Position numbers and translations under genes: made by a program. Below are positions 758 through 8,646 of a stretch of 64,000 nt of DNA, one piece after another. The stretch comes from an uncultured Parvibaculum sp. (lineage in GTDB: Bacteria > Pseudomonadota > Alphaproteobacteria > Parvibaculales > Parvibaculaceae): contig NZ_CAXBIB010000007.1 of NCBI RefSeq assembly GCF_963975745.1, positions 33,340-97,339 of the forward strand, in the 5' to 3' direction. Numbering within the stretch: position 1 is the first letter of the stretch; every line of letters begins with the position of its first letter. The notes below the pieces were generated by a model. The model was not told the origin of the DNA. It did not search any database and saw nothing but the letters and a program-made list of their open reading frames with translations.

Positions 758-1810
758 ATGACATTGCAGACCGAGAAATGCGCTCCGGCGCGGCCGGCAA
801 GCGTCTGGCGGCGCGCCGCCCTGGTCCTCATTGCCGGCCTGGCGCTGGCGGGTGCGGCCAAGGCCGCCGATGTCGACGGTGCAAGCGACCACCCGCTGAT
901 CAAGCGCTACGAGGACGCCGTCATCATCGGCTATCACACGCAGGCCTATGACGAGTTCGACATCGCGACAGGGCCGCACACGAGCAACGCGGCGAAGCTG
1001 ACACAGGCGCAAACGGTCGAGGGCGCGCTTACGCGCCTTCTCTATGTGGCGCCCGAAGGCCGCTCGACGCTGGAAGTGATGCGCAACTACAAGACCGAAC
1101 TGGCGGACAAGGGGTTCGACATCCTTTTTGACTGCAAGGGTTCCGAATGCGGCATCGGCCCCGATGCGCCGCGCGCCGGCTCTGCGATCATATCGAGTGC
1201 GCTGATCAAGCGCGTTGCCCTGACCAATAGCGGGCAGATCACGCAATATGCGTTTTCGCAGCCGCAGGATGTGCGCGTCCTCACGGCCAAGCTCGACCGG
1301 CCGGAAGGCGCGGTCTATGTCTCGCTGGCCATCGCCATCGAGGGCTTCGACCATTTCAAGGCAACGGCGCTGAAACCGCTGGTGCTGCTCGACGTGATCG
1401 AGACCGGCGAGATGGAACAGCGCATGGTGCTGGTCGAAGCGGCGGCGATGGCCAAGGCGATCGCCGAGACCGGCCGCATCGCGCTTTACGGCATCTATTT
1501 CGACACCGACAGCGCCACCATCAAATCCGAATCCGGCGAAACGTTGACCGAGATCGCCCGGCTGCTGAAGGACGACGGCGCGCTGAAGCTCTATGTCGTC
1601 GGCCACACCGACAGCCGCGGCACCTACGACCACAACATGTCGCTCTCGGCGCGGCGCGCCGAAAGCGTCGTCGCGGCGCTGACCAGCGAACACGGCATCG
1701 CGCCCGCGCGGCTGAAAGCGGCCGGCGTCGGTCTGCTGTCGCCCGTCGCAAGCAACGAAAGCGAGGAGGGCCGCGCCCTCAACCGCCGCGTCGAACTAGT
1801 GCGGCAATAG
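758..1810 (+). CDS. OmpA-family envelope protein (signal peptide, N-terminal domain resembling DUF4892, C-terminal OmpA peptidoglycan-binding domain)
   Basis: ORF 707..1810. I prefer the ATG at 758 (MTLQTEK) because it is followed by a signal-peptide-like stretch, AALVLIAGLALAGAAKA. The C-terminus carries the OmpA_C block YFDTDSATI...VVGHTDSRGTYDHNMSLSARRAESV...NRRVELV. Confidence 0.85.
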   Translation: MTLQTEKCAPARPASVWRRAALVLIAGLALAGAAKAADVDGASDHPLIKRYEDAVIIGYHTQAYDEFDIATGPHTSNAAKLTQAQTVEGALTRLLYVAPEGRSTLEVMRNYKTELADKGFDILFDCKGSECGIGPDAPRAGSAIISSALIKRVALTNSGQITQYAFSQPQDVRVLTAKLDRPEGAVYVSLAIAIEGFDHFKATALKPLVLLDVIETGEMEQRMVLVEAAAMAKAIAETGRIALYGIYFDTDSATIKSESGETLTEIARLLKDDGALKLYVVGHTDSRGTYDHNMSLSARRAESVVAALTSEHGIAPARLKAAGVGLLSPVASNESEEGRALNRRVELVRQ

Positions 1811-1825
1811 ACGTCACACCGGGAG

Positions 1826-6300: not shown

Positions 6301-8646
6301 GCGCGATCAATCGCGCGCGGACGGCAAATTCTCGGCGAGGTCGGCGTCGGCACGGGTGTCAGCCAGGCCACGCCGCCGAAACTCGTGCAAATCGAACCGC
6401 CAAAAATTCCAGCCGAGGATTTCGCCAGGGACTTTCCCGACGGCAAGGATGTGCAGCGCGCGTCGAGCATCGAACTCGACGATCTGATCGACCCCGCCAA
6501 TCCCGGCAAACTGCCGGACATTGAAGACCTCAACAAACCACAATCCACACCGCCAGCACCGCCGCGCGGACCGCCCGATCCCGCACCTGAGACCGCTCCG
6601 GCGCCCGGACCGGCCGCCGACGCGGGCGACACCATTCTCGAAGGCACACCGGGACCACCGTCGCAAGCACGTCCCGCACCGTCACCGGCCCCGGCGGCGG
6701 GCGCGGACGCGGACGACACGATCCGCGTCGGCCAGCCGGGCGACGGCGCATCGCCGGCCACGGGCGCCGAGCCTCAGCGGCTTCCCGAAGCCGAGGCCGC
6801 CAGCGCCAATGCCGATCAGCTCGACCGTCTGCGCCGCGACGCAGACGCCGCCTATGAACGCTCGCAGCAACTGGCGCAAGAGGCGTTCGCGCAGAACCGC
6901 GCGATCGATGCCGCGGAAGGCAACGAACTTCTGAAGGGTGCCCACACCGCGGCGGCGCAGGAAGTTGTGGAAACCGCGGTCGATCAGGCGCGCCGCGCCG
7001 GTCTGAGCGAATCCGAAATTCACGCGATCATTTCGAAATACGACGTGACGAGCGGACGCGGCGACCTGATGCGCTTTGCGCTGGTCGACGAGTTGCAGCG
7101 GGTATCCGTCCAGCGCCTCGGCTATGAGCTGGTTGACGATCTCTACGCGCAGGACGTGATGGAGCTGGTGACGCGCAGCTATACCGGCGCGGCCGAGCCC
7201 GCCGACCTTGCACGGTTGAAGGTCTGGATCGACCGGGCCGCCGATGCCGGCGAGGATTTCTTCTCGCGCCTGCAACGGCAAGGCACCTACACCGATCTCG
7301 ACGGGTTCGAGAATCTCGCCGATGCCGACGGCATTGCTTCCCTGCGGAAACTCGCCGCCGACAACGACCTCCTGCCGATGGGACTTCTCGAAACGCAGGC
7401 GCTGACGGCGAGCGAAAGGCTGGCCGAAAGCTCGATCGGCAGGATCCGCAACCTGCCCGAACCGCAACGCATCGACGTGATGAACGCGATATTCGACGCG
7501 CGCCGCATTGCGGCCGAAGCGGGCGTGGCGGCACTCGACGCGACCGAGCGCGCGGCGTTGCGCATCGGCAACGACGTCGTCGGCGACGCGGGCGGGGTTC
7601 CGGCCTGGGCCCGCGGCCTCGACAGGGCCTCCTACGAAAGGATCGCGCATCTCGGCCGCCGCACCGATGTGCACAGCCTGATCGAGGCCGATCCGTCCCT
7701 GCTGCGTCAGATCGCCGACGACCCCGATATCCGCGCGGCAATCGAATTGCAGGCCTACCGCGATCCGGCCGATTTCCGCAAGGTACTCGCCGCCGAACAG
7801 AAGCGCACCCGAGAGCCCCTGGCCGGTGCCTTTACCGAGGCGAAGGACGATCACTGGCTGCCGAAGCAGGTGATGAAGGACGGCAAGGAACAGCCGGTTG
7901 CCTTCAAGCATGAATTGCTGGAGGGCGACGGGAAGAAATTCAGCACCGACAAGCTGCTGAGCGGCGGCGACGAGGTTGCCGTTATCGAGCGCGAGCTCGG
8001 ACCCGCCGATTTGCCGGAATTTGCCGGCGCCAGGCAGATGACCTGGTCCTACATGGAAGCAAAGCTGCTGCCGGACTTCTTCGACAATGTGAACGTGCCG
8101 ATGATCAAGGGGCGCGGCACGAGTTCGGCGGCCATGCTCAACATGCGCGCCTTCCACAATCTCGACATTCCCTATGGCGACCCGTCGCTGAAGCTCGTCA
8201 AGATGTCGAATGTGGAAAATGCCAACACCAGCGTTCAGATCGCCTGGATGAAGCGCGTCTACGGCAAGGACTGGACCAGATATCTGAAAAACACCCATTC
8301 GGTGCGCTATGCCGAGTCCGCGCTCAACCAGGCCGGCTTCCGCATCAAGGAGGTGCGGCTGGGAAGCACACCGCCGCTGCGGATGAACGCGCGCGGCATG
8401 GTGGAGGGCACGTTCTTCAAGGCCAAGGAGAAGCCGATGGAATTCCTCGCCCGCTACGGCGTCTCGCCCAACGAGGCGATCGAGACCGGGCACGACATCT
8501 ACATTGTCGTCGAACCTTTCGGCGCCGCGCCGCCACGCTCCGCATCGGCTGCGCCCCGCCGCCGGCGGCGGGCCCTGTCCGGCTGGCGGCCCGCACGACG
8601 CAAGCCCCGGATCTCGCCGCTCAGGGCCGGGCGAGCTCAGCCATGA
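3352..8646 (+). CDS. giant membrane-associated hypothetical protein (1764 aa)
   Basis: The frame is open for 5.3 kb. Features, in order:
- an N-terminal hydrophobic segment (AAGAGGAAAVAGAAMLAMAAF)
- internal hydrophobic segments around aa 850-955 (LIMTAVAIGTSGAALGGGLVGWATGFEALFF; ISAGLYLDVVPSLVF)
- a Pro/Ala-rich linker (nt 6535-6777)
- a Lys/Asn/Trp/Tyr-rich C-terminal module (about nt 7850-8520)
The last roughly 40 codons are Arg-rich and run through a GC palindrome, so the exact 3' end is uncertain. Confidence 0.75.
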   Translation: MKLFGIDIPLPDPGTPAGMIAAGAGGAAAVAGAAMLAMAAFGDDDMAPVELAGKWEVAYHDRILGRVTGRATVDEGEGGAEVVLTHPKTGEKYTLRSTRFARAGDMLNVTLEGQWPGAEGYVEPPLGEEKAVGAGSPYEWSGPEKITLAHGDSEETFRVLKDEPVGKHKVELELYIGEEALTGSWKQWANAVTGRDESDGGRIADFRFAGDGTGRAFQTGTETWYRPRPVIHLVTPTADQLSIVEYLGARYPYPWDAKGAPVKRADELRYLLVVGDELPTEVGEKIKLESLDDDIEYFVRAKQSDYADDVIAREMLENGFSYTKQQLKRQMLADGIGNDSMLVPLMAEIYKKDWVILGARLKRPAMPGRKGFKLNGAEGSWVLRHGDFVADFAVVRAVGDETEGADHVLIPEKIYLELRTTALFPFDEIPVQLWVNDTPHLFGNSRTIMAKRLPRTKEDDEALAELREAVRFAGGEVENVKPVHIYRTPPIGLVDKGQEASGGAMDLPDVSSEDWRVQVKDGDVIQGVNAAVDKLRTEPFHAKAVAVNSPAEIVRHVAPALGNAQNLTWTRAVAEAARCTGIPFETPVDFDALARRKAKTFSNTVLLDDAAKRATGKQILGDLSGYGRAANLLADLGASGIQSPSAFSGGKTYSLDMRVGDHAAMLILREAFIEMMTRQIEELSAITSDDALYGFRASAEIPSSYAPNHPFADIDVRAPNGQTVYYPFSYAGDALLKTELGLDAEAAEAWRLDATRQLLRQHIAALREARAKAQAIKTCGEHQKLVDLTGRGFAAVNRYARSRLMTAQSVRGERDDAWKADRVARAWLNGVPVFAEALAAQQELSAQDTKLIMTAVAIGTSGAALGGGLVGWATGFEALFFSTAATLGDIGNAAHALYTQVGHKLNTSAEVRFARNAHAVLGDARLEQALAEDRHWAEISAGLYLDVVPSLVFTSGTEFLKGLSDIGSTSRSLYRGGKRLVSQARSIARGRQILGEVGVGTGVSQATPPKLVQIEPPKIPAEDFARDFPDGKDVQRASSIELDDLIDPANPGKLPDIEDLNKPQSTPPAPPRGPPDPAPETAPAPGPAADAGDTILEGTPGPPSQARPAPSPAPAAGADADDTIRVGQPGDGASPATGAEPQRLPEAEAASANADQLDRLRRDADAAYERSQQLAQEAFAQNRAIDAAEGNELLKGAHTAAAQEVVETAVDQARRAGLSESEIHAIISKYDVTSGRGDLMRFALVDELQRVSVQRLGYELVDDLYAQDVMELVTRSYTGAAEPADLARLKVWIDRAADAGEDFFSRLQRQGTYTDLDGFENLADADGIASLRKLAADNDLLPMGLLETQALTASERLAESSIGRIRNLPEPQRIDVMNAIFDARRIAAEAGVAALDATERAALRIGNDVVGDAGGVPAWARGLDRASYERIAHLGRRTDVHSLIEADPSLLRQIADDPDIRAAIELQAYRDPADFRKVLAAEQKRTREPLAGAFTEAKDDHWLPKQVMKDGKEQPVAFKHELLEGDGKKFSTDKLLSGGDEVAVIERELGPADLPEFAGARQMTWSYMEAKLLPDFFDNVNVPMIKGRGTSSAAMLNMRAFHNLDIPYGDPSLKLVKMSNVENANTSVQIAWMKRVYGKDWTRYLKNTHSVRYAESALNQAGFRIKEVRLGSTPPLRMNARGMVEGTFFKAKEKPMEFLARYGVSPNEAIETGHDIYIVVEPFGAAPPRSASAAPRRRRRALSGWRPARRKPRISPLRAGRAQP
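8555..8572. terminator. perfect 18-bp GC palindrome CCCGCCGCCGGCGGCGGG between convergent genes (terminator-like hairpin)
   Basis: Read directly from the sequence. It lies in the Arg-rich tail of the 1764-aa ORF, about 50 nt from the stop of the convergent Rieske gene. No U-tract follows. Confidence 0.35.

Follow-up and report, generated by a model that had tools for sequence, protein, structure and literature searches.

What does an operon encode when it stands alone among catabolic genes and its two larger products resemble no recognised family? The question is raised by three plus-strand open reading frames (ORFs; 707/758-1810, 1826-3355 and 3352-8646 in the ORF list) at positions 758-8646 of a 64,000-nucleotide (nt) stretch of DNA from an uncultured Parvibaculum (contig NZ_CAXBIB010000007.1, positions 33,340 to 97,339 of the forward strand), referred to here as the window. 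A first reading of the letters (the original prediction) could place neither gene 2 nor gene 3 in a known family, and neither returned a significant Pfam, NCBIfam or PADLOC match in the present analysis. We put the probability at roughly one half that the operon encodes an effector that is exported by Sec and belongs to the polymorphic-toxin kind, in which a new delivery region is combined with an obligate partner and, optionally, with an anchor in peptidoglycan.

The gene 3 product, a modular protein of 1764 amino acids (aa; 3352-8646, plus strand), carries near its C-terminus a toxin-type domain of aa 1500-1725 (7849-8526), delineated by profile search and an AlphaFold2 (AF2) model, in which a core of ~155 aa (aa ~1555-1725) is widely shared. 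It is preceded by a helical subdomain of the same C-module (aa 1366-1499; 7447-7848) that is kept in all orthologues in the alignment and accompanies the core in some proteins outside the family. A word-indexed search recovered six clusters only, four from Parvibaculum (78-100% identity) together with P0005 (48%) and P0006 (32%). An exhaustive HMMER search with a profile of aa 1366-1725 recovered 322 protein clusters at E<=1e-3, 136 of them at E<=1e-10, and overturns the orphan status that the original prediction had given to the operon. When the best 150 of the 322 clusters were re-scored with profiles of the N-region and the C-module, about 53 showed the full architecture of gene 3, namely an N-region of ~850 aa, a hydrophobic stretch of ~40 aa and the C-module, in proteins of 1200-1800 aa, most of which begin with a classical cleavable signal peptide or a lipobox; the remaining re-scored clusters share the ~155-aa core only. 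Of 49 carriers without an N-region, 43 have no more than 15 aa beyond the core and the other six have tails of 48-72 aa; Pfam assigns to these 49 carriers eCIS_core (DUF4157) in 15 cases, Ntox3 in three, DUF6861 in two, and PT-HINT and PAAR_motif in one each. A C-terminal module that recurs in proteins with other trafficking or pre-toxin modules is one of the traits by which polymorphic toxins are recognised. Extra stretches of 176-505 aa follow the core in the full-length members P0015, P0053, P0055, P0086, P0106 and P0038, and no Pfam family was found in these tails. Across 134 sequences the core conserves G1589, P1591, N1623, T1648, S1650, Y1653, Q1660, G1662 and P1722, with Ser at the position of P1591 in Parvibaculum. 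No Pfam match was obtained for 45 members of the core family even at E<=10, and profiles of the C-terminal domain found no sequence match in the PDB.

In eight contexts the core-bearing gene is followed by a short ORF (169-200 aa), which at the closest overlaps it by 4 nt and at the farthest lies 50 nt beyond it. Among these are the DUF4157 carriers P0084 (169 aa) and P0092 (172 aa), whose downstream ORFs are known by size only, the Ntox3 carrier P0072 (181 aa), the core-only carrier P0067 (178 aa), and the full-length proteins P0012 (178 aa), P0010 (200 aa) and P0031 (171 aa, locus L022). Four of the downstream ORFs are homologous to one another (L020 against L016, 6e-9; L018 against L020, 3e-4; L023 against the family hidden Markov model (HMM), 2e-11) and constitute an immunity-like family of 178-200 aa encoded directly after the core-ending gene (L016:9107-9709, L018:5099-5644, L020:8043-8579 and L023:5154-5690). 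These four proteins have neither signal peptides nor Pfam matches and are candidate immunity proteins. The 171-aa ORF of L022, tried as a further member, has no detectable relation to them. The observation in the original prediction that no immunity-like ORF follows gene 3 holds throughout the 64 kb of the window, and the immunity-like family exists in relatives: a downstream immunity gene, another trait of polymorphic toxin loci, is present in L016, L018, L020 and L023 and absent from the window.

The conserved N-region of gene 3 (aa 47-850; 3490-5901) has a beta-rich first half and a helical second half, as judged from alignments, AF2 and Foldseek, and its profile matches 53 further clusters and loci L009-L015. 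It contains an invariant C579 (5086-5088) and a near-invariant C779 (5686-5688), a pair that would fit an extracytoplasmic disulfide, as well as a G-D-H-A-A-M-L motif (5329-5349). The AF2 model of aa 47-1000 reaches a predicted local distance difference test score (pLDDT) of 50.6 overall and 70-85 in the beta domains, for which Foldseek returned a multi-beta-domain match to quinohemoprotein amine dehydrogenase 1jju_A (E 1e-7) and, for aa ~47-235, matches to 8-stranded barrels of the avidin/lipocalin/TbpB/fHbp type (probability 0.95-1.0, E 0.02-0.1). Homologues of the N-region were sought in genome and metagenome contigs by the G-D-H-A-A-M-L motif, with a 14-sequence subset alignment for the metagenome scan, and were recovered at 24-29% identity. 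N-region proteins that end in the core are those of the window, L001, L003, L010 and P0010-P0062, while those of L011, L012 and L014 (complete ORFs) and of L015 end in a different domain. This alternative C-terminus of ~300 aa (L014:13241-14296, L015:~13000-13871, L011:~12400-13207 and L012:~5400-6294) was delimited by kinase-like motifs, a Gly-rich loop followed by V-I-K and later by D..N and [IL]D.D; its PDB matches are to kinase N-lobes at E~0.15 only, the whole ORFs have no Pfam match, and a kinase identity is weakly indicated. Between deep branches, the same N-region is thus joined to at least two alternative enzyme-like C-termini, and alternative C-termini on one trafficking region, here of the two types seen, are likewise characteristic of polymorphic toxins. 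A tblastn search of plasmids with the core, the DUF4157-type core and the kinase-like domain gave no match.

The likeness to polymorphic effectors seen in the original prediction therefore stands at the level of the family, in which the core ends DUF4157, PAAR, PT-HINT and Ntox3 proteins and two C-termini occur, and falls away at the level of orthologues. The last ~225 aa had been proposed to vary among orthologues, but identity to the window protein in relatives is 96/85/50/32% for the C-module and 93/77/53/36% for the N-region, so that the C-module is as conserved as the rest, P0006 included, and swapping is seen only between deep branches.

Directly upstream of gene 3, gene 2 (1832-3355, plus strand) more likely starts at ATG 1832, 6-7 nt after GGGAGG, than at GTG 1826, giving a secreted partner of 507 aa instead of 509 aa. 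The signal peptide (about nt 1832-1912) and Pro-rich N-terminal stretch (about nt 1925-1999) described in the original prediction are both evident and are followed by a helical middle, while conservation across lineages is confined to the last ~80 aa, a partner domain (3095-3337; BLASTP 2e-21, 1e-8 and 2e-13) with the motifs Y-G-H-P-F-x-[IV]-E-A-x-F and P-x-L-Y-R-S. In 13 distinct loci the HMM of this domain picks out the ORF immediately 5' of the big gene (E 1e-13 to 1e-32). The window, five Parvibaculum assemblies and a number of deeper lineages are represented among them, and the junction is mostly a 4-nt overlap. The domain was not found in L011 or L013, and L012 is cut at its 5' end. Three tandem partner paralogues, each ending in the conserved domain, lie 5' of the big gene in L022 (1-6004). 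At the junction of genes 2 and 3 in the window, an ATGA overlap of 4 nt, also present in distant relatives, is combined with a GGAGG sequence 6 nt 5' of the gene 3 ATG. Co-directionality and this overlap had been read correctly at the outset, and the reported 15-nt gap between genes 1 and 2 becomes a 21-nt spacer with the ATG 1832 start. Homologues of gene 1 stand directly upstream, in the same order as in the window, in L014 (5e-60) and L024 (8e-66), and 1.7 kb away on the other strand in L016; none was found in L001, L017 or L020. The partner and the big gene are an obligate pair, and the peptidoglycan anchor is a frequent accessory. VWA-domain genes adjoin the pair in L015 (5785-7875), L017 (3119-4564) and L021 (6693-8066), and the L015 gene also has a Sad1_UNC domain and follows a gene for a TPR protein.

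Gene 1 (758-1810, plus strand) encodes a periplasmic protein of 350 aa in which the original prediction had rightly recognised a signal peptide (aa 1-36, nt 758-865, with cleavage at ...AAKA/AD) and a C-terminal OmpA domain. The latter is a full-length match to OmpA_C (PF00691; nt 1496-1786, aa 247-343, profile positions 1-98/98) at 2.6e-20, with 73 bits against a cut-off of 27.2. In addition, a match to DUF4892 (PF16234; Mog1p/PsbP-like) that the prediction did not mention covers nt 869-1156 at 1.4e-8, with 34.9 bits against a cut-off of 28.8, and takes in the first half of the profile only (1-98/183). The one DUF4892 protein of solved structure, PA1624 of P. aeruginosa, is periplasmic and consists of a Mog1p/PsbP-like domain followed by an OmpA-like domain (PMC7716261). 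Gene 1, whose product is periplasmic and joins a DUF4892 N-terminal domain to a peptidoglycan-binding domain of the OmpA type, is comparable to PA1624 and to OmpA_C anchors such as Pal, YiaD and TraB. In contrast to gene 1, which has the full OmpA_C match including an NRRVE motif, the C-terminal domain of PA1624 lacks glycan-binding motifs (PMC7716261), and a toxin-like partner has no known link to PA1624. The peptidoglycan tether of the original prediction is thus retained through the OmpA domain of gene 1 but becomes optional, with L001, L017 and L020 lacking the gene.

The layout proposed for gene 3 was borne out, with a hydrophobic N-terminus, a hydrophobic cluster at aa 851-963, a Pro-rich and helical linker at aa 1001-1365 and the C-module at aa ~1500-1725. 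Its N-terminal hydrophobic segment (aa 17-42; 3400-3477; mean Kyte-Doolittle hydropathy 1.72) may be an export signal or an anchor; at the same position, a classical cleavable signal peptide or a lipobox is found in most members of the family. Within the cluster, family-averaged hydropathy delimits a bilobed hairpin (aa 851-898; 5902-6045) made of H1 (852-867), a Gly/Ser turn and H2 (879-898), with a median length of 39 aa and a marginal insertion energy of about +2 to +5 kcal/mol in a simple Hessa-scale sum. Acidic residues lie within H2 (window 6016-6027), D889 in 89% and D/E892 in 78% of 36 members, which recalls the pH-triggered insertion hairpins of translocation domains. The conserved region behind the hairpin (aa 899-998; 6046-6345) contains a short amphipathic H3, a weakly hydrophobic H4 and a Lys/Arg-rich segment, as outlined by hydropathy and Hessa sums. 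The same sum gives H4 a median insertion energy of +7 kcal/mol (about +5 to +13), from which a third transmembrane helix was judged unlikely. Mean net charge is +4.2 after H4 and -1.1 and -1.2 in the flanks before it (before the hairpin and in the loop). Energies and charges pull in opposite directions as regards topology: those of the hairpin (+2 to +5 kcal/mol) and of H4 (+7 kcal/mol) are as expected for the buried hairpin of a soluble exported protein, and the charge pattern points the other way.

The linker (aa 1001-1365; 6352-7446) is specific to the lineage in the alignment and consists of two parts, the first Pro-rich and disordered with DT[IV]xx repeats and the second helical and rich in Ala, Asp and Leu; it is missing from P0006, which lacks aa ~1000-1365, and is only 6-90 aa long in most family members. 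Two repeated motifs in its Pro-rich part, D-T-I-[LR]-[EV]-G-x-P-G at window 6626-6640 and 6713-6727 (aa 1093-1097 and 1122-1126), resemble TonB boxes (D/E-T-[ILMV]-x-V). The DT[IV]xx motif is restricted to close relatives with long linkers, with two to three copies in most Parvibaculum orthologues and P0076, one in P0002, P0010 and P0013, and none in most members. The linker of L012 (~1650-5300) exceeds 1000 aa and is full of repeats such as K-T-R-R-F-x-D-G-F-D-x-N-I-P-P-A and R-T-[DE]-L-P-R-T. Gene 3 closes with an Arg/Pro-rich tail of 39 aa and the stop codon (8527-8646), variable among orthologues in the alignment.

The fold of the payload is weakly suggested to be that of the acyl-CoA N-acyltransferases (GNAT-like), whose core runs beta4-alpha3-beta5-alpha4-beta6. 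The AF2 model of the C-terminal domain, built from five sequences, has a pLDDT of 68 and a predicted TM-score (pTM) of 0.72, and its top Foldseek matches are mostly acetyltransferases, PA1377, Rtt109, Hat1, GmvT, Elp3, AAC(6'), FeeM and TacT2, at E 0.02-0.5 and TM-scores of 0.24-0.37. Comparison by hhalign with an alignment of four GNAT sequences gave a probability of 0.2%, a weak test, with the four sequences entered by hand. The presence of GmvT and TacT2 among the best matches recalls the GNAT-fold toxins TacT, AtaT and GmvT, but the gene 3 domain is fused to a delivery region instead of forming half of a two-gene toxin-antitoxin pair, and HMM support is absent.

In the effector reading, the N-terminal signal would export the gene 3 product, the effector, and the conserved region of ~950 aa would serve docking, delivery and membrane insertion through its beta-barrel and immunoglobulin (Ig)-like domains with the Cys pair, its helical part and the marginal, acid-bearing hairpin. 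The variable linker would lead to the payload, the C-module with its uncatalogued toxin-type core of ~155 aa. Gene 2 would supply a translationally coupled periplasmic partner that contacts the effector through its C-terminal domain of ~80 aa, and gene 1 would tie the complex to peptidoglycan in lineages that possess it. The whole gene 3 protein would accordingly lie outside the cytoplasm, the hairpin would mediate entry into the target membrane, and the C-terminal domain would probably be toxic and act in the target cytoplasm, which the lack of signal peptides in the immunity-like proteins fits. The missing immunity gene in the window may mean that export shields the producer or that the target is non-self. 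Carriers made in the cytoplasm had a downstream ORF in all five contexts examined and most exported full-length members have none, as would be expected if export separates the domain from the producer's own cytoplasm.

Several observations weigh against this reading. The immunity-like HMMs find no match in L001, L010, L017 or L021, nor in the window or five further Parvibaculum loci. Among orthologues the C-module is as conserved as the N-region, and the operon is syntenic across Parvibaculum, unlike the strain-level polymorphism of classic toxin loci; the C-terminal types so far number only two. A component for release or in the outer membrane was not found, and the cell-envelope-spanning machine of the original prediction stays a conjecture. 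The net-positive segment after H4 would favour a cytoplasmic C-terminus under the positive-inside rule. Membership of the payload in the GNAT family found no Pfam, PDB-sequence or profile-profile support, and both candidate enzyme folds would need ATP or acyl-CoA, which the periplasm lacks.

The last of these points, together with the charge of +4.2 after H4 and the net-negative flanks before it, would be accommodated by a cis-acting transmembrane sensor-effector, in which the N-region alone is exported, an odd number of spans crosses the inner membrane and the toxin or kinase-like domain stays in the producer's cytoplasm. The N-region, the partner and the OmpA protein would then sense something happening at the envelope, for example the entry of a phage, a predator or damage to the wall, and would trigger growth arrest resembling abortive infection, or signalling. 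Outputs that are alternatively kinase-like, immunity-like proteins that lack signal peptides and could be in-cell antitoxins, a locus that is stable, vertically inherited and conserved in Parvibaculum, and the failure to find an export component all agree with such a sensor, as does the resemblance of the OmpA domain to ZorB-type anchors of an envelope-sensing defence system, a resemblance that extends to the OmpA domain only. On the other side, an insertion energy of about +5 to +13 kcal/mol makes H4 unlike a membrane segment, the length of the hairpin is that of an even number of spans, one in and one out, and genes 2 and 3 have no PADLOC match. Most full-length members also lack an immunity-like gene, whereas a short downstream ORF is found in all five contexts examined of carriers without the N-region, a pattern which argues that full-length proteins hold the domain away from their own cytoplasm. 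We consider the sensor-effector, the main rival of the effector reading, possible but doubtful. The PADLOC matches to ZorB are themselves restricted to the OmpA-like part of gene 1, and the locus does not qualify as a Zorya system, which calls for a ZorA partner and a full-length ZorB match, with genes 2 and 3 again unmatched.

The beta-barrel and Ig-like domains of the N-region are typical of binding proteins and, with the OmpA anchor, the VWA-domain genes beside the pair in L015, L017 and L021, the want of an immunity gene in the window and of a catalytic assignment, would suit a non-toxic complex, a surface or periplasmic adhesin or scaffold on peptidoglycan whose C-terminal domain serves binding or regulation and is shared with toxins by coincidence. 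Such a complex seems quite improbable to us, for the core nearly always occupies the toxin slot, the extreme C-terminus, of DUF4157, PAAR, PT-HINT and Ntox3 proteins, a conserved ORF for a small cytoplasmic protein comes after it, and its strictly conserved polar residues suggest an active site. Accidental adjacency or spurious ORFs deserve hardly any credence: chance long ORFs do occur on both strands of DNA with 65% GC, but protein homologues span 24-92% identity, the 4-nt overlap persists in relatives, 13 loci carry the partner domain and the trio recurs in distant lineages, and this conserved synteny refutes the explanation. Conservation of the proteins down to 24-35% identity in other lineages makes the three ORFs genuine genes and not chance ORFs of a GC-rich genome. 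The original prediction had staked its inference on a non-accidental trio, and it was right, given the linkage of partner and big gene in the 13 loci and the recurrence of the DUF4892-OmpA gene in Parvibaculum, L014, L024 and L016.

Among the known systems closest to the effector reading of the operon are Sec-exported polymorphic toxins such as MafA-MafB-MafI of Neisseria (PMC3482391), which likewise combine a large signal-peptide protein, a conserved N-region and a swappable C-terminal domain with a partner gene directly upstream and, as in the relatives of gene 3, a small cytoplasmic immunity-like gene directly downstream; in both, the route across the outer membrane is without explanation. 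Unlike that system, gene 3 has no sequence relation to DUF1020/MafB_N or MafA (no Pfam match at E<=1), possesses the hairpin, a much larger N-region and optional DUF4892-OmpA and VWA partners, shows two C-terminal types in its family and lacks an immunity gene in the window. Toxins associated with extracellular contractile injection systems (eCIS) have a documented layout of N-terminal DUF4157, long linker and C-terminal toxin (PMC8213781), and DUF4157 corresponds to the PVC-metallopeptidase of Zhang et al., many of whose toxins lack adjacent immunity genes (PMC3482391). These eCIS/PVC toxins share the same C-terminal core (15 of 49 carriers), often long linkers and often the lack of an immunity gene, but gene 3 has a Sec signal in place of eCIS_core, and its neighbours are catabolic genes instead of an eCIS locus.

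The hairpin, a marginally hydrophobic pair of helices of ~40 aa with conserved acids in a toxin-like protein that is otherwise soluble, also brings to mind the pore domains of colicins and TH8-TH9 of diphtheria toxin; against this, no sequence or confident fold match exists, and the gene 3 model has a pLDDT below 35 at this point. Colicins are not Sec-exported. Two-partner secretion and contact-dependent inhibition (an Omp85/POTRA partner, a two-partner secretion domain or haemagglutinin repeats) found no Pfam or NCBIfam match in genes 1-3.

The surroundings of the operon are uniform within the genus, with identical flanking genes in other Parvibaculum assemblies, and no contractile-injection genes occur among its eight nearest neighbours. 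Upstream lies a divergent Abhydrolase_3 gene (window 3-611, minus strand, ATG at 611), and the intergenic region between it and gene 1 (612-757, plus strand) is the presumed promoter region of the operon, in which no sigma-70 consensus was found. An Abhydrolase_3 homologue (5e-57) also adjoins the partner/big-gene pair in L021 (4965-6605), where it is convergent and downstream. The next gene after gene 3, as first described, is a convergent Rieske oxygenase gene (Rieske/Ring_hydroxyl_A by Pfam; 8621-9763, minus strand), whose 3' end overlaps that of gene 3 by 26 nt (8621-8646), and further downstream follow genes for a P450, a TetR regulator and a sulfatase. The minus strand also holds a 426-aa ORF (11304-12584) whose TetR-family match begins at residue 229, so that the first start codon probably lies far 5' of the true one, a 794-aa ORF without a Pfam family (13873-16257) and a 402-aa ORF (16563-17771) with a weak match to Proteasome (PF00227; 1.4e-7).

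Polymorphic toxin systems are a known kind. Neither the payload domain and its immunity-like family nor the hairpin-bearing N-region, the conserved domain of the partner and the DUF4892-OmpA link are in Pfam, NCBIfam or PADLOC, and no publication on any of them was found. A bolder proposal, which we regard as a long shot, is that the pair with its optional anchor is an unrecognised envelope apparatus, either a new Sec-dependent route by which diderm bacteria would deliver swappable enzymatic payloads across membranes through the acid-bearing hairpin or a receptor-like transmembrane switch from a large periplasmic sensor to a cytoplasmic toxin or kinase, and that the payload and its ORF of ~180 aa form a new toxin-immunity pair also used by contractile injection systems. 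If the effector reading is true, three uncatalogued families would be added, a toxin-type C-terminal domain in more than 300 clusters that include eCIS, PAAR and HINT toxins, its immunity-like partner, and a delivery region of ~950 aa with an obligate helper, and the polymorphic-toxin repertoire would gain a Sec-dependent, peptidoglycan-tethered architecture. It would become testable how signal-peptide toxins of diderm bacteria exit the periplasm and enter their targets, and why many of them come without immunity genes, and engineered injection systems would gain a new candidate payload in the C-terminal domain.

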